A DNA stretch of 64,000 bases from Anaerolineae bacterium (GTDB lineage: Bacteria > Chloroflexota > Anaerolineae > B4-G1 > SLSP01). The notes below the pieces were generated by a model, which was not told the origin of the DNA, ran no database searches, and saw only the letters and a list, made by a program, of their open reading frames with translations. Shown here piece after piece: positions 1-46,900 of the stretch (position 1 is its first letter; every line of letters starts with the position of its first letter). Position numbers and translations under genes: made by a program. The DNA lies in the NCBI GenBank assembly GCA_034437255.1, contig DAOTUH010000126.1:19198-83197 (forward strand). The letters run 5' to 3'.

Positions 1-837
1 GATGACGAAAAAAAGTAAAATGATGTAGAGCGTCAGGCCCGTGCCGCCGGTGAAGCGGAAATAGAGCACAGAGAGGCCGATCAGGCCCAGGAAGAAGATA
101 AGCATACGGGCCGTAGGATTGTCCCGGAGCCACTTGGCGGTCAACTCGAAGATGCTCATCTGGATCACACGCTCCATCTCCCGTTTGGGGAAGGAGACAC
201 CGACGCGATTCGGACCGGTAGCGGAGCCGTTTTCCCATCGCCAATAGACGAGCGTGCGATCCCCATCGATAGCGACCTGGGTGAAAGGCTCATCCTGGTA
301 GCGAACCTCGTCGGGCTGCACGCCTTCGAGCATGGCGACGATAATCTGCACGTCCGTCGAGCCTATGACCAGGCTGGAGTCGAACCACGTCGGCGTAATC
401 TGGAGCGACGCGTACTGCCGGTCTGTCACGTCCTGATAGACGAGATCAGGCATGGTGAACTCGACGTGCAGCGTGCCGGTCTCGCCAGCAGGAATAGCAT
501 GCTCGTCTAGATGAATCTCCACGCCGGTGTCAATATACGTCGATGGGCGGATGTCCGTCAGCGGGTTGCCATCGACGTTCGCGGACATATTGCCAATGTC
601 GTAGTCATCGTGCGGCGTGCCGATATCGACGATGTCGATGGGACTGGCGTAGCCCGCGTTTTCAAAAGTGATGTCATACTCGATCCGCACCGAGGCGTCC
701 GGCTGCACCTCGACGAACATGCGCAGCTCCCGCACGGAGAAGGAATAGTTCTGCGCCGCTGCCGGTCGTCCCAAGGTGAGCAAAGCCAGACAGACGATGA
801 CCAACATGCCGATTCTGTATGTGCGGTGATTTCTCAT
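1..837 (-). CDS. Exported/membrane protein, DUF2207-like architecture (5' end in window, gene runs off the window edge)
   Basis: ATG at 837 sits 5 nt downstream of a GGGAGGTG Shine-Dalgarno. Signal peptide MRNHRTYRIGMLVIVCLALLTLGRPAAA. No in-register minus-strand stop down to position 1. Hydrophobic helices at the C-terminal end. Absent from the ORF track because no stop lies inside the window. The overlapping plus ORF 511..921 is judged spurious. Confidence 0.7.
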   Translation of the reverse strand, partial: MRNHRTYRIGMLVIVCLALLTLGRPAAAQNYSFSVRELRMFVEVQPDASVRIEYDITFENAGYASPIDIVDIGTPHDDYDIGNMSANVDGNPLTDIRPSTYIDTGVEIHLDEHAIPAGETGTLHVEFTMPDLVYQDVTDRQYASLQITPTWFDSSLVIGSTDVQIIVAMLEGVQPDEVRYQDEPFTQVAIDGDRTLVYWRWENGSATGPNRVGVSFPKREMERVIQMSIFELTAKWLRDNPTARMLIFFLGLIGLSVLYFRFTGGTGLTLYIILLFFVI

Positions 838-994
838 TCAGCACCTCCCATATCCTACACACTAAAGCATGGCTCTGCTAAAAATTGGATTTTTAGTATT
901 TCGGTCTGCGCTATTCGCTGACCTTTGATACGTAAACTCACAGACCCTAGAATCAAGTTTCCGAAAAATCCGATTTTTTTGTCTCGATAAGTAA

Positions 995-2350
995 TTAGCC
1001 AGGATTTACAGCCCAAGTTCGAGGATCGCTGGGACAGCCGGCCACGCAAATCAGCAGATCGGGACAGACGTCACAGCGGCTCGGCGCTTCGACCCGTTCC
1101 CGATAGACGCGGAAGGCCTCGTGCTGCCAGATGGTGTCCCAGTCGTCCTGCAGGAGATTACCCGCGCTGCGATAGCGTCCGCGCGGCGGCACCACGGTCC
1201 CGTCCGGCTCGATGCGCGCAGCCACGTCACCTGCACAGCGCGGCCCCAGGCGAACCTGCGCCTTGAGCGGGGTGTCGGGATCGCGCGCCACGGGCGGCGC
1301 CCAGATAAAACGTGCCTGCGCCCCGTGGGCCACCTCCTCGACGCGATTAGCGACCTGCGGCATAGCCTCAGCAACGAAAGCCTCGTCCTCGCTCAAAGCC
1401 GGGTCCGCCGTCGCGTAGGCGACGAAGATGATGTTGTCCGCACCTATCTCCAGGAGCGAGATCACCGTCGGCTCCAGAGCGTCCAGCGTCGGCTCGATCA
1501 GCGGTACCTCGGCCACGGCGCAGAGCCCGCTGGTCTCCAGCCAGGCGAAGAGTTCGGTGGCCGCCACATGGTCGCCCTCACCGAGCAGCGCATCGTGCAG
1601 CGCGCCGTCGGTCGCCGCGTAGGGCAGCGTGACGTGATCGACGCCCGCCATGGCGAGGTCCGGGACGAACTCGGTGATATCCATCGCGCGCCCGCGCACG
1701 CCCGCGATAAGGCCCAGATCCTCGGCCCGCTCCACGGCACGTACGAGGTGCGCGCCTTCCGGCGCGACGGGCGCCAGGAACGTGACGTGCGGAATCCCGA
1801 CCTCCCACAGCCGGTCGAGCAGCGGCACGAGGTGCTCGGGCGATGCCAGCGGCACGGCGGCCTCCAGCGGCGCGATCAACTCCGCCGCCTCCGCCGAGAA
1901 AGGCGCCGACTCCAGGTTGAAGACGGGATACGTGTCCCCCGGTTGTAGGATCTGTGCGATCAGTCCCTGGACGCGCTCAATGTCGGCGCGCATGGTGGCC
2001 TCTGTTGCCCCCTTGAAGTTCTGTTTCAGCCGCCGCAGGATGGTAGCCTCGTCGTCGCCGTCCAGAAGACCCTTGACGATGAGCGTGCCCGTCAGCGTGA
2101 GGCGGGCCGCGGCCGTCGCATTTGCGATGAGCATGCCGCTGCCGTCGCGCTCCACGCGCAGGTGAAAGCGCGTGATGGTGCCGTCGTCGCTCTCCTGCAT
2201 AACGTGGGTGAGTCCCGGCTCCAGGGGCGGGGACGGTTCGGGACGTTGGACGTCAAACAACCGTTTTAGCCAATTCGATGGTGACATCATCTCCTCCTCT
2301 GAGAACAAGTCAAAGGTGATTCTACTGAAAAAAGGTTGTGCCTCACGCAA
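995..2350 (-). CDS. Radical-SAM/SPASM-family paralog with N-terminal PqqD-like RRE domain; CxxxCxxC motif absent, predicted catalytically degenerate
   Basis: N-terminal ITRFHLRVERDGSGMLIANATAAARL resembles a PqqD-like RiPP recognition element. The C-terminal CDVCPDLLICVAGCP is SPASM-like. No CxxxCxxC is present anywhere. Overall co-linear with the 3375-4772 gene. Confidence 0.6.
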   Translation of the reverse strand: MREAQPFFSRITFDLFSEEEMMSPSNWLKRLFDVQRPEPSPPLEPGLTHVMQESDDGTITRFHLRVERDGSGMLIANATAAARLTLTGTLIVKGLLDGDDEATILRRLKQNFKGATEATMRADIERVQGLIAQILQPGDTYPVFNLESAPFSAEAAELIAPLEAAVPLASPEHLVPLLDRLWEVGIPHVTFLAPVAPEGAHLVRAVERAEDLGLIAGVRGRAMDITEFVPDLAMAGVDHVTLPYAATDGALHDALLGEGDHVAATELFAWLETSGLCAVAEVPLIEPTLDALEPTVISLLEIGADNIIFVAYATADPALSEDEAFVAEAMPQVANRVEEVAHGAQARFIWAPPVARDPDTPLKAQVRLGPRCAGDVAARIEPDGTVVPPRGRYRSAGNLLQDDWDTIWQHEAFRVYRERVEAPSRCDVCPDLLICVAGCPSDPRTWAVNPG

Positions 2351-2440
2351 AGACGCCGCCGACCAAAGGTCGGACAGTCGCCAAGATTTTAAATTTGTCC
2401 TTACTTTTCTGAATATTAAAGCCAGCCTAGATCAATAAAA

Positions 2441-2513
2441 TCTACCATCTTATGAATTTCCTTTGCGTTCTTGGCGCCTTTGCGTGAGGTTGATGGTTAT
2501 TTCAGTGAAGTCA
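2441..2513 (+). repeat. Conserved ~72-nt element R, copy 1, containing mini-ORF MNFLCVLGAFA (2452-2487)
   Basis: About 93% identical to 58141-58213. Outer inverted repeat ACCATC...GATGGT. Internal direct repeat CCTTTGCGT x2. Confidence 0.5.
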
Positions 2514-2556
2514 AAGGGCAAAGGTAAAAACCGGATTATTGAGAAGCCTATGAATC

Positions 2557-3351
2557 TCACGTGACGACGCGCAGCCAGCCGCCGTCGACGTAGTACGTCG
2601 AGCCGACGCAGTAACTGGCGCGCGGCGAGCAGAGAAAGACGAAGAAGTCGGCCAACTCCTCCGGCGTGGCGAAGCGCCCGATGGGTGTCTTTTCCTCGGC
2701 GATCTGCCGGAGGTACGTCTCCCAGCCCATCTCCCGACCGGCGGTCAGCGCTTTCGCCGTCTTGATCCAGTCGCCGGTCTGGATCAGGCCGGGGTTGATA
2801 CAGTTGACGCGGATGTTGTCGCCGATAAGCTCCTCGGCCAGGCACTTGGAGAACATGGCGAGTGCCGCTTTGGTGACGTTGTAGATGGGCTCGTAGCCCA
2901 GCGGCTGGCGGGCGCAGATGGAGGCGTTGTTCAGGATCACGCCGCCTCCGCGCGCTTGCATCAGGGGCGCCAGGCCCCGGGAGAGCCGCACCGCCGCCAT
3001 CACGTGCAGGTCCCAGTAATACTGCCACATCTCGTCCGGCGCCTCCAGGATCGTCTCGTTGCTGCCGGTCCCCGCGTTGTTGATGAGGATGTCGACGCCG
3101 CCAAAGGCGCGCTCGACCTCTTCGATCAACCGCTCGATGTCGCCGGCGACGGTCACGTCCGTGCGCACACCCAGCACCTCGACGTCGTGCGCGTCTCGAA
3201 TCTCCGCTGTTGCTTCGTTGAGCCGCGCAGCGTCCCGCGCGCAGAGCACCACGTGGACGCCTTCCGCCGCCAATCCCTTGGCAACCGCCAGTCCAATGCC
3301 CGCGCTCCCGCCCGTGATGACCGCGACGTTGCCTTCCAATCCAAGATCCAT
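2557..3351 (-). CDS. SDR family NAD(P)-dependent oxidoreductase
   Basis: TGGSAGIGLA Rossmann motif. YxxxK-type SDR core inferred from overall SDR-like sequence. Start moved from the track's 3429 to the ATG at 3351 (MDLGLEGNVAVITGG), which has a GAGG upstream and avoids overlap with the preceding gene. Confidence 0.85.
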   Translation of the reverse strand: MDLGLEGNVAVITGGSAGIGLAVAKGLAAEGVHVVLCARDAARLNEATAEIRDAHDVEVLGVRTDVTVAGDIERLIEEVERAFGGVDILINNAGTGSNETILEAPDEMWQYYWDLHVMAAVRLSRGLAPLMQARGGGVILNNASICARQPLGYEPIYNVTKAALAMFSKCLAEELIGDNIRVNCINPGLIQTGDWIKTAKALTAGREMGWETYLRQIAEEKTPIGRFATPEELADFFVFLCSPRASYCVGSTYYVDGGWLRVVT

Positions 3352-3374
3352 GTTTTCCTCTCTTTCTCTACCTT

Positions 3375-4772
3375 CTATCGACAGCCGTATGCGCGTGCCT
3401 CGCGCTCCAACCGGCAGCCGCCGCCGCACATCTCAAGATCAGGGCAATCCCAGCAGGTCTCCGGAAGCCCCGCCGCCTGCGGATTCTCCTCACGCTCCCG
3501 GAAACTACGGAAGAGATCGCTGTTCCAGATGGCGTCCCAGGGATCGCGCAGCAGGTTGCCCGCCGTCACGTAGTACGATTGGCAGGGCAACACGTCGCCA
3601 TTAGGCTCGACGCAGATGGAGTACTCAGCGGCGTTGCAGCGTTTGGGCGCCAGGCCCAGCGCCACCGGCGAGAGCTCGCAGTAGTCGGTCACGGTGTACC
3701 AGAGAAAGCGCATGCCCAGCTCGGCAGCGCGTTCCCGCACGGCCACCAGCACCGACGCCATCTCCTCCGCCGGGATCGCATCGGGCGTCGCCAGGCCGCG
3801 TCCCGCGTAGATTATGCCATTCATCGCGAAGGTCGTCAGGCCGAGGTTGTGCACGAAATCGACGGTCTCCAGAGCGTGATTGACGTTGCGGCGCGTCAGC
3901 GTGGTGTTGGTGATGGTGTGGAAATCGCACACCAGTGCGTTCTCAATGCCCCGCACGGTCTGCTTGAAAGCGTCAGCGTTGACCATAGCGTTGTGCACGT
4001 CGGCGCGGCAGGACTCCAGCGTGATCTGCACGTGGTTGAGGCCCGCGTCGCCCAGCGCGTCCACCAGCGGTCGATGGGAGAGCGCGCGCCCGTTGGTGTT
4101 CATCCCCACGATCTGGCCCAGGTCATCGGCGTGCCGGACGATGGCGGGTAGGTCTGGGTGCAGCGTCGGTTCGCCACCGGTGAGGATGATGTGCGGCACC
4201 CCCACGTCGGCCAGCGTCTCCAGCACGCGGAACCAGTCTTCGGTGGGCAGCGGGGGCATCTCACGTCGGCCCGGCTCGTTGTAGCAATGCGCGCAGGCGT
4301 TGTTGCACCGGTAGGTCAGCGCCAGGTCGGCTTTGAAGGGCGCGCTGACGGGCGTGCTAAAGAGCGGCGCGAATTCCACCAGCGACTGGACCGCGCAGGT
4401 CGGGCAGCCGGATTCGACGGTACGGAACCGGTCGATGAGTTCGTAGACCTGGGCCAGCGCCGCGTCGAGCGCCGCGCGCGCCACACCCCGGTACCGTTGT
4501 GCGAGCGCCGCGCGCGCCCGAGCCTGCGGCACGTCATCCAACGCCAGTTTCGCCATCTCCGTCGCCGTCGCGTTGAGATGCACGGCGTCGGTCACGTCGG
4601 CGAAGAGCACGCCCGATCCGTCCTCTGCAACGCGCAGATGCAAGCGCCGCTTGCCCTCCCTCACCGGCACCGGATACGTGTACAAGCCCGGTTCCGGCGG
4701 TGCAGGCGGCGCTAACAGCGTCCACGCTGCCTGAACCTCTTCTTGAACCTGCGCCCACCAGCTGCCCATCAA
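3375..4772 (-). CDS. Radical SAM/SPASM-domain enzyme (PqqE/MftC-like) with fused N-terminal PqqD-like RRE
   Basis: LTYRCNNACAHCYN carries the CxxxCxxC AdoMet-cluster motif. GGEPTLHPDL. C-terminal Cys-rich SPASM region CWDCPDLEMCGGGC. N-terminal LHLRVAEDGSGVLFADVTDAVHLNATATEMAKLAL resembles a PqqD/RRE fold. Confidence 0.85.
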   Translation of the reverse strand: MMGSWWAQVQEEVQAAWTLLAPPAPPEPGLYTYPVPVREGKRRLHLRVAEDGSGVLFADVTDAVHLNATATEMAKLALDDVPQARARAALAQRYRGVARAALDAALAQVYELIDRFRTVESGCPTCAVQSLVEFAPLFSTPVSAPFKADLALTYRCNNACAHCYNEPGRREMPPLPTEDWFRVLETLADVGVPHIILTGGEPTLHPDLPAIVRHADDLGQIVGMNTNGRALSHRPLVDALGDAGLNHVQITLESCRADVHNAMVNADAFKQTVRGIENALVCDFHTITNTTLTRRNVNHALETVDFVHNLGLTTFAMNGIIYAGRGLATPDAIPAEEMASVLVAVRERAAELGMRFLWYTVTDYCELSPVALGLAPKRCNAAEYSICVEPNGDVLPCQSYYVTAGNLLRDPWDAIWNSDLFRSFREREENPQAAGLPETCWDCPDLEMCGGGCRLEREARAYGCR

Positions 4773-4954
4773 TTACCTCTCATATCGGCCCGCGCGTAAC
4801 CCGCGCCGCGTCTACGAAGCAGGCACCTACACAACCAGACGCTCACCGGACGCGCCGCGCCACCGCTTCCAGCCGCGTTAGCGGCGTCGGGTTGATGCGC
4901 TGGTTAGGTGCCTCCGCTCTGCATACCAACCTCTTTACCCAAAAATCCTTGTTT

Positions 4955-6229
4955 TCAATCGGCTATTGCCATACCTCGTTCAACTACCTCAATCGCTTGT
5001 CCAACACCGTCTTCAGCACGGATCCGCTCACCCAATGCATCAGCATGTACCCGAATGTTTTTGTCTGTGACTGCCGTGGCAATCGCCGCTCCCAACTTCC
5101 TCACTGTCATTCTCTTGCGCGGTATTGCCTTCGGCCCAACACCAAGCCTCATTACCTGCCGCGCCCAGAATGGCTGATCACCAAAGTGGGGCACCAACAC
5201 CGAAGGCACACCTGCTCGCAACCCCGCAGCCGTCGTTCCCGCTCCACCATGATGCACCACCGCGGCTACGCGCGGGAATAGCCAATTGTGAGGCACCGAT
5301 TCAAGTTTGAACACACCATCCGGCAAATCAACACTCTTCAGCCCGCCCCAACCTGACGCAACCAGCCCTCGTTGCCCTGACCGCTTCAGCGCTTTCAGGA
5401 CGATCTCGGTCGTTGATTCTGGATCACGGCTTGACATACTTCCAAAGCCAACATATACCGGAGGTGGGCCAGCCTCAAGGAATCTCACTAAATCGGTGGG
5501 GGGGAGCCAATCTGACGAGTGGTCAAGGAACCAGTATCCTGTGACATGAATGTGCTCATCCCAATCCGGTGGCTTAGGGACGACAGATGGACTGTAGCTG
5601 TAAAGCATGGGTACCGGTCGTCCATCCAGCTGGCCATAGGGCCACTTGAAGAGCGAAATTGGCGGCAATCCCAACTGCTTTTGCCGCCAGTGGTTGATGA
5701 AGCGCCCCGTGAGCTGTTGTGCAAATTGCTCAACCATGATGTGTGTCGAGAGATTGTAACTGCCGCCTAAGGGGAGGAAAGGAAACGCCAGGTTCGGAAA
5801 GCTGCGGGTACGATTGAAGAAAGGAAACGGTAAGGCCCAAAAACAAGGCAATCTTTGCTTCTCAGCAATATGATAAGCTCCTATTCCAAGCGTTGAAAAG
5901 ATGATGGCTTCCGCCGTCTGAGAAGCCTGCCAGACTCTACCCGCGAGTTGCTCCAGCGTCGGCTGCATCATACGGATGATTTGCCACATTCCCTGAATGA
6001 CATTGCGGCCCGATTCTAGCACATCCCACGCAGCTTCTGTCCCCAACAACTCTCGTGCGTTCATGCCAAGAGAAAAGAAATCCAATCCTTGACTTCTGAC
6101 AAACCTCTCGAAATCATCAGTCGTGACAAAAGTCACTTCATATCGCCTGGTCTTCTGCAGCCCTACGCCCAGCGCCACGAGTGGTTGCACGTCACCACGC
6201 GAGCCAAGTGCCAAAATCATACTGCGCAT
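4955..6229 (-). CDS. GT1-family glycosyltransferase (MGT/UDP-glycosyltransferase-like)
   Basis: N-terminal ILALGSRGDVQP. C-terminal HHGGAGTTAAGLRAGVPSVLVPHFGDQPFWA is a UDP-sugar binding signature. AAGGAAA SD before the ATG at 6229. Confidence 0.85.
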   Translation of the reverse strand: MRSMILALGSRGDVQPLVALGVGLQKTRRYEVTFVTTDDFERFVRSQGLDFFSLGMNARELLGTEAAWDVLESGRNVIQGMWQIIRMMQPTLEQLAGRVWQASQTAEAIIFSTLGIGAYHIAEKQRLPCFWALPFPFFNRTRSFPNLAFPFLPLGGSYNLSTHIMVEQFAQQLTGRFINHWRQKQLGLPPISLFKWPYGQLDGRPVPMLYSYSPSVVPKPPDWDEHIHVTGYWFLDHSSDWLPPTDLVRFLEAGPPPVYVGFGSMSSRDPESTTEIVLKALKRSGQRGLVASGWGGLKSVDLPDGVFKLESVPHNWLFPRVAAVVHHGGAGTTAAGLRAGVPSVLVPHFGDQPFWARQVMRLGVGPKAIPRKRMTVRKLGAAIATAVTDKNIRVHADALGERIRAEDGVGQAIEVVERGMAIAD

Positions 6230-6299
6230 CGGCGTTTCCTTGGATATTCTACGTCAACCATTCATAGATTTAACAGCAAAGGGCACCTAACCAGCACGT

Positions 6300-6450
6300 G
6301 TGTGGCTCGGTGGGACACCGGCCACAGCGCATCGTGTCAGCATTCGCACTGTGTGGCTCGGTGGGACACCGGCCACAGCGTATCGTGTTAGCATTCGCAC
6401 TGTGTGGCTCGGTGGGACACCGGCCAAAGCGTATCGTGTCAACATCCAGT
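6300..6450. repeat. Tandem direct repeat, 3 x 51 bp
   Basis: GTGTGGCTCGGTGGGACACCGGCCACAGCG(C/T)ATCGTGT(C/T)AGCATTCGCACT repeated three times with 1-2 mismatches. Contains the hairpin core CGGTGGGACACCG. Confidence 0.9.
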
Positions 6451-6452
6451 AC

Positions 6453-6794
6453 CTACCACTTGGGCGCTTCTTCGATTTGATAGCTGGCGCCGCAGTAGGG
6501 GCACTCGACAAAAATCGCGCCGGCGCGCACCGAGAGATTATCTTTATCCAGAGTTCCGCCGCAGTTTCGGCACGTCATCTCTTCCAGCTTCACGTCGCCG
6601 CTAAGATCGATCTTCTGCACGATGGTCTTCTCCTCGTGCTTGGGCCGCACGCGGGTGAGATAAATCATCACGCCGGCCCCGGCCATCAGGATCACGCCGA
6701 CGATCACGCGGATAAACTGACCTTGCGCGCCGACGACGAACATCACGCCAAAGAACGCCAACACCGCTGCGATGATATAGGTCACAATCTCCAT
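6453..6794 (-). CDS. Small membrane protein with C-terminal zinc-ribbon
   Basis: TM helix IVTYIIAAVLAFFGVMFVVGA and a second hydrophobic segment. CRNCGG...CPYCG zinc ribbon. ACGGAGGTT SD before the ATG at 6794. The track's longer start at 6836 is judged less likely. Confidence 0.65.
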   Translation of the reverse strand: MEIVTYIIAAVLAFFGVMFVVGAQGQFIRVIVGVILMAGAGVMIYLTRVRPKHEEKTIVQKIDLSGDVKLEEMTCRNCGGTLDKDNLSVRAGAIFVECPYCGASYQIEEAPKW

Positions 6795-6910
6795 GGAACC
6801 TCCGTTGTGAATGGATGGTTTGCGCAATACTCTCATTATAGTCTGATTTGGACAGCAGCATAGCGGCGGGACATGAAAGGTCTTCTCAGGAAACGGTGAC
6901 GATCAAGTTG

Positions 6911-6919
6911 TGCTATACT
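6911..6919 (+). promoter_or_regulatory. Possible extended -10 promoter element (TGcTATACT) upstream of 6970 gene
   Basis: TGnTATACT lies 50 nt upstream of the GTG start. No convincing -35. Confidence 0.25.
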
Positions 6920-6969
6920 GGTAGAAACGATGAGCAGTCCATGTCCATCGACCTAAGGAGGCAACTTCT

Positions 6970-8169
6970 GTGAGACGCCCGATACGATTTCTATGGCTGT
7001 TTTTGATGTTCACGACGTTGGCTTGTGTCTTGCTTGCGACGGAGGAGCCCACGACCACACCGACCGAGGAGGAAGCCAACACGGCGGGAGCGCCTACGTC
7101 CACCGACACCTCCGATCCGGCAATGACACAAACGCCAACTGCAACGACTGAAGGCGACGAAACGAGGAACGGCGACACACCCACCTCAACACCGGCAGGC
7201 TGCACGTTAGGCGCGAGCTTCATCGAGGACGTGACCATTCCCGATGACACTGCGCTGGAACCCGGCGCGGACTTCCGCAAGACGTGGCGGCTGCGCAACT
7301 CCGGAAGTTGCAATTGGGAAGCGGGCACGCGGTTGGTTTTCGTGAGCGGGGAGACGCTGAACGGGCCAGACAGCGTGATCGTCCCGGCGGCTGCGGCCGG
7401 ATCGACGGCCGAGGTCAGCGTGGAGCTCACCGCGCCCACGACGCCGGGCACCTATCGCAGCGAGTGGCGGCTGCAAGCGCCGGACGGCACCCGGTTCGGC
7501 ACCACCATCTACGTGCAGATCATCGTGCCGGAGCCACCGACGGTCACGCCCACGCCGACCGATACGCCTGCCCCGATCACTGCAACGCCGACGCCCACGT
7601 CAACGCCAGACGAGACAGGCTGCACCACACCCTACGATCCCGCTTTCACCGCGACGATGGACTACGCCGCCGACCTGGGCTTTGACATTGGATGTGCCGA
7701 GAGCTTTGGATACGATATGTCCGGTGCTGTGCAGATTTTCTGGGCCAACGTCGACGAGCCTAATCCCCATTTGCACTACCGGACGCTGATGATCTGGAAC
7801 AAGCCCTACAAGCAGGGCGAGATTTACTACGTCACCGTCTCCGAGACAACACCCGTGCAGCCCTTCCACGCCAGCTACGACACCTGGGAAGAGGAAATGC
7901 CCGAAGTCCCGCCGGACTGCGCCGACATGCCGGTGCCCGACGGTTACCTCATCCCTATTCGAGGTTTCGGCAAGCTCTGGTGTGAGCAGGAGCTCTGGAC
8001 AACTATCGGCTGGCCCAGTGAGTCGGAGGTTGCCATCACGTTTCGCGTCCAGCAGACCGAACACGGCCGGTTGATGCGCTTTGGCGATCCGCTGATCAAC
8101 ACCTATGTTGTGGCGTGGGATTATGATACGAACGAGGCACTGGTGCACATGAATCCGATTGAGCCGTAG
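6970..8169 (+). CDS. Secreted Thr/Pro-rich protein with central Ig-like (NBR1/CARDB-like) domain
   Basis: AAGGAGG SD then a GTG start. Hydrophobic signal with LACVL lipobox-like motif. Long T/P/E-rich linkers. CNWEAG...TRLVFVSG motif. Confidence 0.7.
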   Translation: MRRPIRFLWLFLMFTTLACVLLATEEPTTTPTEEEANTAGAPTSTDTSDPAMTQTPTATTEGDETRNGDTPTSTPAGCTLGASFIEDVTIPDDTALEPGADFRKTWRLRNSGSCNWEAGTRLVFVSGETLNGPDSVIVPAAAAGSTAEVSVELTAPTTPGTYRSEWRLQAPDGTRFGTTIYVQIIVPEPPTVTPTPTDTPAPITATPTPTSTPDETGCTTPYDPAFTATMDYAADLGFDIGCAESFGYDMSGAVQIFWANVDEPNPHLHYRTLMIWNKPYKQGEIYYVTVSETTPVQPFHASYDTWEEEMPEVPPDCADMPVPDGYLIPIRGFGKLWCEQELWTTIGWPSESEVAITFRVQQTEHGRLMRFGDPLINTYVVAWDYDTNEALVHMNPIEP

Positions 8170-8261
8170 GCGAAAAACGTTAGAACGTTTGAACGTTCAA
8201 ACGCTCTAACGTCTCCGCTTGTGTTCTCGGGTTTCGTGTACCAGCTCGTTATCGTGCGCGG

Positions 8262-11156
8262 CTAGCGTGGTCGATGTCCCGTCAATCTCTCTCGCAGTTC
8301 GATAAACGCTTCGAGATCGCCTTCGGCGAGGAGGCGGGCCTGGTCGAGCCACGTGGACGTGTAACGGACGCGAATGCCGCTCTCGCGGAGTATAGCTTGA
8401 ATCTCCTCCGGCGTCAGGGCCGCCAGCTGCTCGAAGAGCGCGATGCCGGCCGCGTTGAGCAGCTTCTCGCTCTTTGGCCCCAGCCCCCAGATGCGCTGGA
8501 GGTCGTCGGGCTCCGTCAGCTTGCGCTCTTGCACCGGCTCCGGCTTGGCTGCCGGCACAGCAAAGGAGATCGCCGCGGTCGGCGGCGTGGGCATGCGCCA
8601 GCGGTAATCGTGCTGCATGGCCTGCTTGAAATCCTCCTGGATGCCGGACTTATCGTGGATCTTCCACTGATCGCCCGTCCAGCGGTAAAGCAGCAGCCCA
8701 CGGATCTGTTGTGCATACGGCCGCATGTTCCAACCATCGATCTCCTCGTAGATTTTGCGCACCCAGCCGATGTTAGCGTTGATCCACCCCTGCGACGCCG
8801 GATTGTCGCACGTGGGCGCGTTGTCCGGGCGACAGACGTGATTCGTCTCGGTGATGTAGACGGGCAGATCCTTCCACTTGTAGGGAATGCGCTCCATAAA
8901 CTGTCGATAGGTCTGGAAATCGAAGTAGTGATCGTTCAACAACGGATCGCCAAAGGTTTCCAGATGCGTGATGGCTTCCAGCGACGGTCCGTGCGTGTAG
9001 GCGTGCAGGATGAAACCATCCAGCGAATCGATGTTGTCCATCATCTTCTGGAAGTAATCTAAGGGCCGCCAGCGCACATTGCCCAGCAGGGGCATGGACG
9101 AAGAGTTGTAAGGGTCGACGGCGCCAGGACAGACCAAGGCGTTGGGCAGCACGTCCTTGATGGCAGCGTAGATCTTGTTGAAGGCCTCCGCGTAAAGCTC
9201 TGCCGTGATGTGTTGCTTAGGATGATGCAGCCCGCCCGGATGCTCGCTGGGATTGTTTTGCTCGTTGCCAATCTGGATCGTCCAGGTGTAGTCATCCGGC
9301 GAGAGATCGTCCCGCTTGAGGTAAATCTCAACCCAGCGCGCGCACGCCTGCGCGAACTCATCGTAGTGGCGGGATTCGGGCAGCGTGCCGCCGGGATGGT
9401 AGCCATGATTGAGACGTACGATGACACCGTAGTCCTTCTCCATCCAATCCTGGACGCGGTTGCGGATATCCTGATTCAGACCGACGTCCTGGGGACGCCG
9501 CCGTACTACCTCTGTGAAGAAGACCCAGCCCTTCTTCCCCCCGGCGTTGAAGAGATTGCGGATCGGGTCCCGCGTGTAGTGGTCGTCGCTAAGCTGGGCA
9601 GCATGCATGCCGAAGATGTGGGGCGAGAGCCCGCGATCTAGCCAGCCGTCGCGCGCCTGTACCCGCTGATCTTTCTGCTCGGGACGACGCACATACCAGG
9701 CCGCCACATGTCCCTCTCTCCGCGAGGGCGTCCGAACCTTGATCCATTTCTCTTGCTCGCCGATTTTGTTCCCCGTGACTGTAGGATCTTCCAGAGAGCG
9801 CAACACGGCACCATGCGGCACCCACCAGACCTGGACATGATCCGTTCCCGGCCCGCTGCGCACCCGCAGCCCGTACTCGGGGCTTTCCACGACAACGAAT
9901 CGAGCGGGCTCGCCGGACGGCGTCGGTTTTGGCTCAACCTCGGTCTCGAGCTTGAGATACCAGGCCGCCGTGTAGCCGCTCTCATCTTCCGCCGTCTGAA
10001 CGTGTAGCCACTCGTCGTGCTCGCCGATTTTGCGCCGCACCTGGTCGGCCGGTTCTAGCGCTTTAATGATCGCACCATCGGGCATCTGGGCGACGATGTC
10101 GTGCTCCGTGCCCGGCCCGCTGCGGAGCTTGAGCGGCATCTCTGGGCTTTCTACCACTAACAACAGCGTAGGCGTCGGCTTCTCCTTCTCCGGCAGCCGC
10201 AGATACCACGCCGCCGTGTAGCCTTGTTTCCCGTCCGGTGTCTTGACCTTGAGCCATTCCCCGTACTCGCCAATCTTACGGCGCACGTCGATGTCCGGCT
10301 CCAACGCCTTGAGCACCGTCCCGTCGGGCATCTCGGCGACAATCTCATGTTCCGTGTCCGGCCCGCTGCGCAACTTGAGGGGGGTCTCGGGGCTCTGGAC
10401 GACGACGGAGAGCGTCGGCTCCGGCTGTTCCTCCTCCGGCAGTTTCAGATACCAGGCAGCCACGTACCCGTTCTGACCGTTGTGCAGCCGCACCCACAGC
10501 CACTGACCGTGCTGCCCGACCTTCTTGAGCGTGACATCCACCTTTTCCAACGAACCCAGGACAGTCTCATGATCCACGCGCCCAACTTGCTCGCTGCCCA
10601 CGTAAGGCCTGGCCCGCACGTTCAGGAACCCAACCTCCGGGCTGTGCACTTGCACCTTCATGGTGGGCTTAGCGGGTGGTTCCGGCTCCACGCCACCCTC
10701 CGAAAACGGCAACAGATAGGGGCGAGGATTCACGATATCGTAGGGAAAATAGGTCTCGTTGCTTCCCGTCGCGCCATCTTTCTTAAGTGTCAGGTGAAGA
10801 TGCGCACCAAAGGAGTTCCCACTATTCCCGCCCAACCCGATCAGCTGCCCGGCCCGCACGGCCTGGCCTTCGATGACGACGACGGAGGAAAGATGCGCGT
10901 AGACGCTGGTGAAGCCATTGCCGTGCTGAACGCGAACCTGATTGCCGTAGGGTCTCTTGTTGGGATTGGAGTTACCATCAAGACTAACGCGACTCACGAA
11001 GCCATCGGCGACGGCATAGACCTCACTTCCTTCCGGCGCCTTGAAATCCAGCCCCTCGTGTCCAGGCAACCCAAACTTCTGGTAGAACTCCGGTCGGACA
11101 CCGAATTCCTGGGTGATCCTGTTAAACTCTGTCGGCCAACGCATACGAAAACTCAT
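8262..11156 (-). CDS. Multidomain cell-wall hydrolase: M23 peptidase + 4 SH3b-like repeats + clan GH-A glycoside hydrolase + C-terminal helix-hairpin-helix
   Basis: HEGLDF...HLHLT is an M23 signature. Four near-identical ~95-aa repeats end in AAWYLKLP. IGNEQN and YITETN resemble GH-A acid/base and nucleophile motifs. IWGLGPKSEKLLNAAGIALFEQLAALTPEEI is HhH-like. GGAGGG SD before the ATG at 11156. No signal peptide. Confidence 0.8.
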   Translation of the reverse strand: MSFRMRWPTEFNRITQEFGVRPEFYQKFGLPGHEGLDFKAPEGSEVYAVADGFVSRVSLDGNSNPNKRPYGNQVRVQHGNGFTSVYAHLSSVVVIEGQAVRAGQLIGLGGNSGNSFGAHLHLTLKKDGATGSNETYFPYDIVNPRPYLLPFSEGGVEPEPPAKPTMKVQVHSPEVGFLNVRARPYVGSEQVGRVDHETVLGSLEKVDVTLKKVGQHGQWLWVRLHNGQNGYVAAWYLKLPEEEQPEPTLSVVVQSPETPLKLRSGPDTEHEIVAEMPDGTVLKALEPDIDVRRKIGEYGEWLKVKTPDGKQGYTAAWYLRLPEKEKPTPTLLLVVESPEMPLKLRSGPGTEHDIVAQMPDGAIIKALEPADQVRRKIGEHDEWLHVQTAEDESGYTAAWYLKLETEVEPKPTPSGEPARFVVVESPEYGLRVRSGPGTDHVQVWWVPHGAVLRSLEDPTVTGNKIGEQEKWIKVRTPSRREGHVAAWYVRRPEQKDQRVQARDGWLDRGLSPHIFGMHAAQLSDDHYTRDPIRNLFNAGGKKGWVFFTEVVRRRPQDVGLNQDIRNRVQDWMEKDYGVIVRLNHGYHPGGTLPESRHYDEFAQACARWVEIYLKRDDLSPDDYTWTIQIGNEQNNPSEHPGGLHHPKQHITAELYAEAFNKIYAAIKDVLPNALVCPGAVDPYNSSSMPLLGNVRWRPLDYFQKMMDNIDSLDGFILHAYTHGPSLEAITHLETFGDPLLNDHYFDFQTYRQFMERIPYKWKDLPVYITETNHVCRPDNAPTCDNPASQGWINANIGWVRKIYEEIDGWNMRPYAQQIRGLLLYRWTGDQWKIHDKSGIQEDFKQAMQHDYRWRMPTPPTAAISFAVPAAKPEPVQERKLTEPDDLQRIWGLGPKSEKLLNAAGIALFEQLAALTPEEIQAILRESGIRVRYTSTWLDQARLLAEGDLEAFIELRERLTGHRPR

Positions 11157-11244
11157 AATGAAACCCTCCTTGCCTCGTGGATTTAACGTCCCTTTTGGCA
11201 TCTTCCGGGATACTTGGAGCATCCCGGAAGATCAGTGAAAACCC

Positions 11245-20090: not shown

Positions 20091-20206
20091 GATCGTATCC
20101 TTGGCTATGGAAAATGCGCCACTTGAAGTGTGTCGGCCCAGATTCACCGAAGGTTCAAAAATAGTATAGCATAGATTTGAGGGCAAAACAATAGAGGTGT
20201 GGGAAG

Positions 20207-20262
20207 TGTTGCGTGTTGCGTATTGCGTGTTGCGTGTTGCGTGTTGCGTGTTGCGTGTTGCG
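20207..20262. repeat. Heptanucleotide microsatellite (TGTTGCG)x8, one unit TATTGCG
   Basis: Directly visible. Lies in the divergent intergenic region between the CHAT-SIR2 operon start and degV. Confidence 0.95.
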
Positions 20263-20386
20263 TGATGGTCTCTGTCGGGGTTTGACTTTGTAGGCGTACG
20301 ATGAGAGGATGCCGGGGCGGATGGGTGTCTTGAGTCTGGTGTGGAGTATAATAAGAATCGACAATAAGAGATCCAGGAAGGAGATT

Positions 20387-46671: not shown

Positions 46672-46900
46672 GGAGGCCGGGGGCGGGCACGGTGGGGACA
46701 CCGGCCCGAACGAGAAGGTAGGCGTGATGGGGAGGCCGGGAACGGGCACGGTGAGGACACCGGTCCGAACTAGAGAAGAGCGGGCGCGGTGGGGAGACTG
46801 GGGGCGGGCACGGTAGGGACACCGGCCCGAGCGAGAGAAGGGCGGGCGCGGTGGGGAGATCGGCCCGAACTTTAGGGACACCGGCTCGAGATACCCGTGG
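46672..46900. repeat. Tandem direct repeat, ~60 bp x 3.5
   Basis: Units GGAGGCCGGGGGCGGGCACGGTGGGGACACCGGCCCGAACGAGAAG.... Shares the core CGGTGGGGACACCGGCC with the 6300-6450 array. Confidence 0.9.

Follow-up and report, generated by a model that had tools for sequence, protein, structure and literature searches.

The stretch analysed here is a window of 64,000 nucleotides (nt) from an Anaerolineae bacterium (contig DAOTUH010000126.1, positions 19,198 to 83,197, assembly GCA_034437255.1). At its low-coordinate end, between positions 1 and 6794, lies a locus that we slightly favour reading as a copy of a conserved cassette for protein maturation, into which two unrelated genes have been inserted and in which a radical S-adenosylmethionine (SAM) enzyme modifies the Cys-Ala tail of a membrane protein. 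The enzyme, hereafter rSAM, carries an N-terminal RiPP recognition element (RRE; RiPP, a peptide synthesized ribosomally and modified post-translationally), a radical SAM core and a SPASM domain. It is accompanied by a paralog lacking the radical SAM cysteine motif (pseudo-rSAM), a small Zn-ribbon membrane protein (ZnR) with two transmembrane (TM) helices and the DUF2207-like membrane protein that bears the tail. The features of the locus are as follows.

1-837, minus strand: DUF2207-like membrane protein, 5' part (279 of 631 codons), running off the window start; probable substrate protein
995-2287 (open reading frame, ORF, 995-2350), minus strand: pseudo-rSAM paralog, 430 aa; start at 2287 according to P0157, 100% identical over 430 aa
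2557-3351, minus strand: classical short-chain dehydrogenase/reductase (SDR) oxidoreductase, 264 aa; Pfam adh_short_C2, 4e-54
3375-4769, minus strand: RRE-radical SAM-SPASM enzyme, 464 aa, with CNNACAHC; ATG at 4769; Pfam, NCBIfam, AlphaFold2 (AF2) and Foldseek
4955-6229, minus strand: GT1-family glycosyltransferase, 424 aa; Pfam EryCIII-like_C, Glyco_transf_28 and UDPGT
6294-6445, no strand: tandem repeat with a 51-nt unit in 3 copies, detected with Tandem Repeats Finder, between the ZnR gene and GT1
6453-6794, minus strand: ZnR, small Zn-ribbon membrane protein, 113 aa, two TM helices; CxxC...CxxC zinc ribbon

A preliminary description, made from the sequence of this stretch, had proposed a RiPP-like or peptide-cofactor-like cluster at 995-6229, consisting of two radical SAM/SPASM paralogs with an SDR between them and a GT1 glycosyltransferase, and with a tandem repeat and a Zn-ribbon gene at its upstream edge. 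All of these features were found where it had placed them, the genes being on the minus strand. The limits of the cluster have to be redrawn, as the gene at 1-837 and ZnR belong to the system and the SDR and GT1 do not.

Gene order and distribution of the cassette

Relatives of rSAM are present in at least 351 Anaerolineae species genomes (one genome per species was scanned), and 80 genome loci were retrieved for the comparison of gene order. In the counts given below, 72 is the number of loci with at least 500 nt upstream and 56 is the number of loci with at least 6 kb downstream. The recurring order is ZnR, rSAM, pseudo-rSAM and one or two DUF2207-like membrane proteins, often with a class I SAM methyltransferase. 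ZnR is located directly upstream of rSAM on the same strand at 61 of 72 loci, which makes it a core conserved component and a core partner of the rSAM gene, not merely a neighbour at the upstream edge as had been described. The pseudo-rSAM gene was found at 50 of 56 loci, in nearly all cases directly upstream of the tail-protein gene, and the tail-protein family at 49 of 56; the SDR was found at one of these 56 loci and GT1 at none. The methyltransferase, which surfaced from a clustering of small ORFs across the 80 loci, occurs at 48 of them, and at about 41 it is the next gene after that of the tail protein, in the same orientation. Two optional genes can be located between rSAM and pseudo-rSAM, coding for a 179-aa LiaF-like membrane protein and a 232-aa MetH-activation-domain-like protein. 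A reciprocal metagenome scan anchored on the tail protein gave 69 further loci, with the order pseudo-rSAM, tail protein, methyltransferase wherever the contig was long enough. It is very probably this conserved cassette, rather than the set including SDR and GT1, that constitutes the functional unit.

The clustering of small ORFs over the 80 loci brought up no conserved candidate for a free precursor, just antisense or out-of-frame artefacts of downstream genes. The intergenic regions had been described as having no ORF longer than 10 codons, which holds for ATG starts but not for TTG and GTG starts, with ORFs of up to 33 codons, none of them conserved. The accompanying statement that no precursor could be found stands only in part: there is no small precursor gene here, but a strong candidate is encoded next door, at 1-837. 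Since no small ORF is conserved and the distribution of the rSAM cassette is class-wide and housekeeping-like, the locus does not fit a classical RiPP cluster. A full-text literature search, including DUF2207 together with radical SAM, SPASM proteins of Anaerolineae and the tail sequence, returned nothing relevant on this system; ZnR and the tail protein are not covered by any model of NCBIfam or Pfam, and none of the rSAM subfamily models fits.

A variant cassette of an Anaerolineaceae type was seen at L003, L057, L062, L068, L070, L077 and L082. Here the gene after rSAM codes for a homolog of the membrane protein's C-terminal half (about 290-390 aa) that lacks the tail and at four of these loci ends in ATFYG, ATFFG or ATFRG, and pseudo-rSAM keeps GGEPT and has lost all SPASM cysteines. 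At some of the loci pseudo-rSAM, the tail protein and ZnR are encoded on the opposite strand, and some of the rSAMs bear a Cys-rich C-terminal extension (GGCSGCSGSCGT...). Anaerolineae-type cassettes also occur on contigs labelled Thermoguttaceae (L163) and Armatimonadetes (P0125), with ZnR 61% and rSAM 56% identical to those of the window, the explanation being either mis-binning or horizontal transfer.

The Cys-Ala tail of the membrane protein

The membrane proteins of the cassette (about 520-770 aa) end, past a Gly/Ser linker, in CACACAGCACACACAGGGR or CACAGCACACACAGGGR, and in the main cassette the tail follows the pattern (CA)2-3-G-(CA)4-GGGR. The 69 tails collected from 54 genome loci are encoded by 69 distinct DNA sequences with synonymous variation at every tail codon, and the final 17 residues are identical throughout, which shows that the tail peptide is under extreme purifying selection. 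Orthologs in about 50 metagenome loci also carry the tail. A phmmer search over 1.84 billion representative proteins gave 515 clusters of tail-protein relatives; among the 148 best representatives, which belong to separate 50%-identity clusters, about 120 carry (CA)n-G-(CA)m-GGGR, containing 6-7 Cys, at the end, and the remaining ones are for the most part fragmentary or represent a paralog of about 333-349 aa that has no tail. The tail type co-varies with the cassette type, main or variant, the variant cassette with the SPASM-less paralog being paired with a (CA)3-4-G-(CA)3 tail at 3 of 3 loci.

In the window the gene at 1-837 stops short of the tail, which lies just beyond the window start, and no CxCxC motif is found anywhere in the 64,000 nt. 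Window bases 21-84 had no exact match among the metagenome contigs. Contig L158 was reached through an exact match of the ZnR protein; it is 98.98% identical over a length of 6.4 kb and codes for an intact tail protein of 631 aa ending in ...SSGGGGSSGGSSCACACAGCACACACAGGGR. The invariant tail of this protein reads ...SSCACACAGCACACACAGGGR, with …CACACAGCACACACAGGGR as its final residues.

Hydropathy analysis of the tail protein gives a signal peptide and an N-terminal domain of about 210 aa; these are followed by 68 hydrophobic residues in one block, enough for about three TM helices, and by RKRRK. On this basis the C-terminal half, with the tail, is predicted to be cytoplasmic and would be within reach of rSAM. 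Neither Pfam nor NCBIfam gives a significant match on the tail-bearing proteins, and the DUF2207_C match on a 311-aa tail-less paralog stays at E = 0.006 with 16.7 bits against a threshold of 33; the resemblance to DUF2207 is one of layout only. The function of the DUF2207 family is unknown according to the single functional study found, which deals with S. mutans SMU.243.

By a small balance of probability, the tail would be the substrate of rSAM. The domain architecture of sactipeptide and ranthipeptide maturase systems and a co-encoded Cys-containing candidate substrate are both found here, the tail belonging to a large membrane protein.

Relatives in archaea

The tail is not confined to bacteria. 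The Hodarchaeales (Asgard) contig L162, with a GC content of 36%, contains a homolog of the membrane protein (36% identical), directly followed by a gene coding for an RRE-rSAM-SPASM enzyme which is 40% identical to that of the window and has the motif CNNKCEHC, and then by a UbiE-like methyltransferase gene. The Asgard tail reads GGGGCACACAGCACACAGGGR, and the rSAM start codon is located 1 nt past the tail stop codon in both L162 and the related L165. No pseudo-rSAM gene was detected within 8 kb in L162, the sole archaeal locus where this could be checked, and no ZnR gene within 8 kb of rSAM. On a Helarchaeales contig a ZnR homolog (...CPYCGTIYELSEEPKW), with the C-terminus EEPKW, is encoded directly upstream of the membrane-protein gene. 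Other tail-bearing representatives are, by name, from metagenome-assembled genomes of Korarchaeota and Ranarchaeia. The protein P0152 was considered as a tail-less Asgard homolog and negative control and was rejected, its end being frameshifted or miscalled and the tail being present.

The radical SAM enzyme

In Pfam, the 464-aa protein (counted from the ATG at 4769) matches Radical_SAM (PF04055) with 90.9 bits against a gathering threshold of 29.5 and SPASM (PF13186) with 45.6 bits against 21.5, which bears out the intact CxxxCxxC motif and the SPASM region of the preliminary description and places it in the radical SAM superfamily with a SPASM/twitch domain. The motif, CNNACAHC, is formed by C156, C160 and C163 and is invariant in 60 orthologs. 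Nine further conserved Cys at residues 365-464, the SPASM region, could ligate two auxiliary clusters, and the linker holds a conserved CPxC (C123, C126). The orthologs are 60-70% identical, and every named one is from Chloroflexota of the class Anaerolineae.

A PqqD-like N-terminus had also been proposed. Such an RRE is a peptide-binding winged-helix fold of about 90 aa with a three-stranded sheet and three helices. In the AF2 model (pLDDT 84, pTM 0.86) residues 29-118 form four strands (29-66) and three helices (68-118) before the barrel. Foldseek against the PDB puts SkfB, SuiB, PqqE and CteB on top (SkfB with E = 8.6e-16), with near full-length alignments of 404 columns for the top match SkfB and 448-475 columns for SuiB; both SuiB and SkfB carry an N-terminal RRE. 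The Pfam model PqqD (PF05402) matches 14 of 60 rSAM orthologs and the L003 paralog at 30.6 bits, with no match in the window's rSAM or pseudo-rSAM themselves. The N-terminus of rSAM is thus an RRE by its modelled fold and Foldseek alignment, the support at the sequence level being weaker.

The peptide-maturase hallmarks recognized earlier are likewise borne out, as a PDB search with a profile of 60 rSAM orthologs returns SkfB first (6e-24) and PqqE second (3e-21), in agreement with Foldseek, and SkfB, SuiB, PqqE and CteB are all peptide maturases. The anaerobic sulfatase-maturating enzyme (anSME) takes rank 18 in Foldseek (E = 1.5e-10) and is not among the 25 best NCBIfam matches shown. Neither of the two findings named beforehand as speaking against this, an anSME-like grouping or an unsupported RRE, was made, and the protein is an RRE-rSAM-SPASM enzyme of the peptide-maturase type.

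No NCBIfam model reaches its cutoff for rSAM, pseudo-rSAM, ZnR or the tail protein. The comparison with TIGRFAM subfamilies that had been recommended for rSAM gave raw scores of 121 for AhbD (cutoff 500), 117 for PqqE (TIGR02109, cutoff 381), 97 for MftC (TIGR03962, cutoff 265) and 74.5 for SkfB (cutoff 300), and the AlbA and StsB models are also far from being reached. Membership in AhbD/NirJ is further contradicted by the presence of the RRE and by there being no heme-pathway genes seen in the cassette, membership in PqqE by there being no pqq genes in the window or related loci, and membership in MftC by there being no conserved small ORF and by the glycosyltransferase and SDR not being conserved; as for anSME, other families are closer and the RRE is present.

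These scores bear on another explanation, according to which the tail is a metal-, iron-sulfur- or lipid-binding motif and the rSAM pair acts elsewhere, either on a peptide encoded at another place or on a small-molecule cofactor precursor for a membrane complex. Alternating CxC motifs are typical metal ligands, as in metallothioneins, the best NCBIfam score is that of the heme b synthase AhbD, some cassettes include the MetH-activation-domain-like protein (Pfam Met_synt_B12, 24.5 bits against a cutoff of 25), and the methyltransferase common in the cassette would fit cofactor chemistry. Metal ligation would not, however, need invariant Ala, Gly and GGGR; both paralogs keep the RRE, which is a peptide-binding domain, all the scores for non-peptide families are far below their cutoffs, and in the Asgard contigs the rSAM gene begins immediately after the tail. 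This explanation is considered unlikely.

The inactive paralog

The second of the two radical SAM/SPASM paralogs described earlier is indeed a co-linear paralog of rSAM (29% identical, E = 1e-39), but not a radical SAM enzyme. Its segment aligned to CxxxCxxC reads ...AELIAPLEAAVPL... and contains no Cys, and it is not matched by PF04055. Pfam detects SPASM alone, with 24.3 bits and 5 Cys kept, and the C-terminus holds the partial SPASM region CxxCPxLxICxxxCP. Because CxxxCxxC is absent from all 55 pseudo-rSAM orthologs examined, the paralog is, judging by its motifs, a pseudo-enzyme. The AF2 model (pLDDT 83) retains the TIM-barrel fold, with SuiB and SkfB as the best PDB matches, and the RRE-like arrangement of strands and helices at the N-terminus of rSAM recurs in it.

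The Zn-ribbon membrane protein

An alignment of 67 ZnR orthologs reveals the motifs IDLSGDV and CxxC...CxxC and a conserved C-terminus, YQxEExPKW, which is still variable at Q/S, I/L/F/M and E/T. Within the soluble domain, Y54, E58, K61 and W62 are invariant across 18 diverse sequences. The similarity to PDB entries is merely that of a generic Zn ribbon, and a LysW/ArgW carrier-like reading was discarded, as it had only sub-threshold matches besides this generic similarity.

The motif [IV]DLSGxD is common to ZnR, where it is IDLSGDV (residues about 60-66, window 6597-6617), and the tail protein, where it is VDLSGVDRVTGDVF and is found in the type of about 620 aa some 40 residues before the tail (L158). 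The motif could serve both RRE domains as a docking strand.

It is also conceivable, if unlikely, that ZnR itself is the substrate, with rSAM modifying the Y-Q-x-E-E-x-P-K-W end, e.g. by a Glu/Tyr or Lys/Trp carbon-carbon link of the PqqE or StrB/SuiB kind, and the tail protein being a partner or beneficiary. ZnR is the gene most tightly linked to rSAM and is kept next to it at five of the six loci that, among the 56 with at least 6 kb downstream, lack pseudo-rSAM, Y54, E58, K61 and W62 are invariant, the EEPKW end is kept in the Helarchaeales homolog, and the closest solved relatives of rSAM include PqqE and SuiB. Against this, L162 has no ZnR within 8 kb of rSAM and there the tail abuts the rSAM gene, the ZnR C-terminus varies at the three positions given above whereas the tail is invariant, and the zinc ribbon is only generically similar to solved structures.

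Proposed mechanism

In the mechanism proposed for the tail as substrate, the RRE domains would bind to the C-terminal part of the membrane protein, and ZnR would possibly help to keep the soluble enzymes in place at the membrane. With the help of its dead paralog, the active rSAM would modify the Cys-Ala tail by 5'-deoxyadenosyl radical chemistry together with its auxiliary clusters, the methyltransferase would add a further modification, and the product would stay tethered to the membrane protein.

As for the chemistry, the most likely product would be intramolecular thioether cross-links from Cys-S to carbon, as in sactipeptides and ranthipeptides, although thioether formation as such is put forward only tentatively and by analogy. 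It is favoured because thioethers are what SkfB, CteB and AlbA make, the nearest of the characterised enzymes with Cys-rich substrates, because SPASM auxiliary clusters are used for binding substrate thiols, and because the invariance of Ala and Gly suggests that these residues are chemically or sterically involved. A more far-reaching variant, which seems improbable to us, is a protein-tethered and radically cross-linked Cys-Ala ladder, e.g. with lanthionine-type bonds from Cys-S to Ala-C-beta made by rSAM, that would serve as a redox or metal-handling prosthetic structure of a membrane complex; it would be an ancient module of Asgard archaea, Korarchaeota and Anaerolineae, with pseudo-rSAM as a bacterial substrate chaperone, and it would explain why Ala is as invariant as Cys.

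Several points weigh against the tail being the substrate. The tightest gene linkage of rSAM is with ZnR rather than with the tail protein, and ZnR, with its own conserved C-terminus, could be the substrate. At 6 of 56 loci rSAM occurs without a nearby pseudo-rSAM, and five of these six keep ZnR. The top raw NCBIfam score belongs to a non-peptide enzyme, AhbD, which is just over PqqE, both being far below their cutoffs. An alternating-Cys run could be a metal- or cluster-binding site needing no modification, and the end of a membrane protein of about 600 aa is an unusual substrate for RRE-dependent maturases. Finally, the L162 tail (9298-9495) is in the +1 frame relative to the called gene (8001-9392), which is likely an assembly frameshift, since the tail is in frame in the related L165.

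The hypothesis lends itself to direct testing, the tail being short with an Arg at its end and the genes being open to co-expression. A modification of the tail, if there is one, would be a post-translational modification of a new kind on a housekeeping membrane protein; it would assign a function to part of the large group of uncharacterised DUF2207-like proteins and would provide a clean example of an rSAM pseudo-enzyme acting as a partner.

Genes and repeats inserted into the cassette

GT1 is absent from all 80 related genome loci, including the 87%-identical relative L009, in which ZnR and rSAM are separated by about 30 nt with no GT1 between them. Its GC content at third codon positions (GC3) is 0.55 versus 0.77-0.88 for ZnR, rSAM, SDR, pseudo-rSAM and the membrane protein. 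The composition points to a recent, foreign insertion between the ZnR and rSAM genes by horizontal acquisition. Members of the 90% cluster of GT1 bear the JGI name 'sterol 3beta-glucosyltransferase'. The SDR is confined to L009, L010 and same-species contigs (2 of 80 loci) and, by this comparison of loci, appears as a lineage-specific insertion between rSAM and pseudo-rSAM, outside the conserved cassette.

A DegT/DnrJ/EryC1-type aminotransferase is encoded after the tail protein in L158 (18156-19391) and L009 (15850-17079), where the methyltransferase sits in most Anaerolineae, and outside this species SDR and DegT were seen in L009 and L010 only. In this lineage the cassette thus contains or adjoins three genes of sugar type, SDR, GT1 and DegT.

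The preliminary description had seen in SDR and GT1 a mycofactocin- or PQQ-like gene set. In its present form this would be a species-specific RiPP or peptide-cofactor cluster, in which SDR and GT1 (with DegT in L158) tailor or glycosylate the rSAM product. The three genes do share the strand of the cassette and lie within or beside it, with the SDR starting 23 nt past the rSAM stop codon, and SDR and DegT are shared with L009. However, GT1 is found at none and SDR at two of the 80 related loci, GT1 has a foreign codon composition and a variable number tandem repeat (VNTR) at its flank, the MftC and PqqE scores stay far from their cutoffs, genes for MftA/B or PqqA/B/C/D are lacking, and the cassette is kept without SDR and GT1 across a bacterial class and in archaea. 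The proposed gene set is not supported, and such a cluster is very unlikely. A lineage-specific tailoring role of SDR and GT1 is conceivable, but nothing supports it. In practice, genome-mining tools that set cluster borders by neighbouring 'tailoring' genes such as these would mis-annotate this locus.

The 51-nt repeat at the flank of GT1 has 3 copies in the window, 6 in L158 (10343-10700) and 2 in L159 (10343-10480), the strains being about 99% identical. Each unit begins with ATG and has exactly 17 codons, and the 52-codon ORF formed by three units was considered as a multi-core precursor for GT1; this was rejected, as the copy number varies and indels break the frame, and the ORF is also missing from the protein collection. 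Because the indels in L158 break the frame, the repeat is taken to be a non-coding VNTR at the GT1 insertion junction. A second tandem repeat at 46672-46863 (62 nt, 3.2 copies, 82% matches) has the core GGGGACACCGGCC, which resembles the core GGTGGGACACCGGCC of the 51-nt repeat, so that both may be members of a single intergenic repeat family in this genome.

Neighbouring genes and other features of the window

The cassette is neighboured by two genes, both of them kept in L006 and L158, contigs of the same species. One (6970-8169, plus strand) codes for a secreted protein of 399 aa with an N_BRCA1_IG (Ig-like) domain, the other (8262-11222, minus strand) for a protein of 986 aa that combines an M23 peptidase domain with repeats of an SH3-like module. 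At 20206-20264 the heptamer GTGTTGC is repeated in what looks like a perfect array (8.4 copies, 96% matches). An Rfam scan of window positions 1-9000 with E up to 1 returned no RNA family. PADLOC gave generic matches only, of the rSAM core to viperin models and of the cassette methyltransferase to the mad2 model, and a defence-system reading of the cassette was rejected for this reason.

Comparison with known systems

To our knowledge, RRE-dependent rSAM maturases are found almost only in accessory natural-product clusters and act on small free peptides. The cassette stands apart from them in its class-wide and Asgard occurrence, in having the tail of a large membrane protein as a candidate substrate and in its obligatory-looking dead paralog.

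The SCIFF/ranthipeptide maturase CteB (PDB 5why) and the sactipeptide maturases SkfB (6efn) and AlbA share with rSAM the N-terminal RRE, the rSAM core and the SPASM auxiliary clusters, as well as a Cys-rich candidate substrate in the same operon; SkfB is the best match in sequence and fold, and CteB is among the top ten. SCIFF is conserved across the Clostridia, and like SCIFF the cassette is conserved across a whole taxon and not sporadic. Unlike the free peptides of about 45 aa of these systems, the candidate here is the C-terminal 17-19 residues of a membrane protein, and the enzyme, for which thioethers are predicted, comes with a dead paralog, ZnR and a methyltransferase.

SuiB/StrB (PDB 5v1q-5v1t) give the best near-full-length structural alignment, of the 448-475 columns mentioned above, for rSAM and pseudo-rSAM, but with an identity of only 13-16%. 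The streptide substrates are small secreted peptides with KxxxW, and a Lys-Trp link has no support here although ZnR ends in PKW. PqqE, also an rSAM-SPASM enzyme working with a PqqD-type RRE, is second best in both NCBIfam and the PDB, whereas no pqqA, pqqB or pqqC genes are present here and the RRE is fused to the enzyme. The mycofactocin system (MftC, MftA/B, MftF and SDRs) resembles the locus in having an rSAM-SPASM maturase with a glycosyltransferase and SDR nearby, but neither an MftA-like peptide ending in GVY nor MftB is found here, the glycosyltransferase is a foreign GT1, and SDR and glycosyltransferase are missing from nearly all cassettes.

The closest functional analogy for a tethered product is QhpD/QhpC, where an rSAM-SPASM enzyme, QhpD, installs Cys thioether cross-links in QhpC, which is kept as a functional subunit and is not a secreted product. 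QhpC is a small soluble subunit and there is no pseudo-paralog or ZnR partner; the likeness meant here is one of function. The tail protein resembles DUF2207 (PF09972 / PF20990) in its layout, with a signal peptide and an extracytoplasmic domain before the TM helices and with a Gly-rich low-complexity C-terminus on the cytoplasmic domain, but an invariant Cys-Ala tail has not been described for DUF2207.

By analogy, the system would work like an RRE-dependent rSAM-SPASM maturase, and would depart from the known ones in its membrane-protein-tail substrate, its pseudo-enzyme partner, its class-wide spread across domains and its lack of a free precursor.

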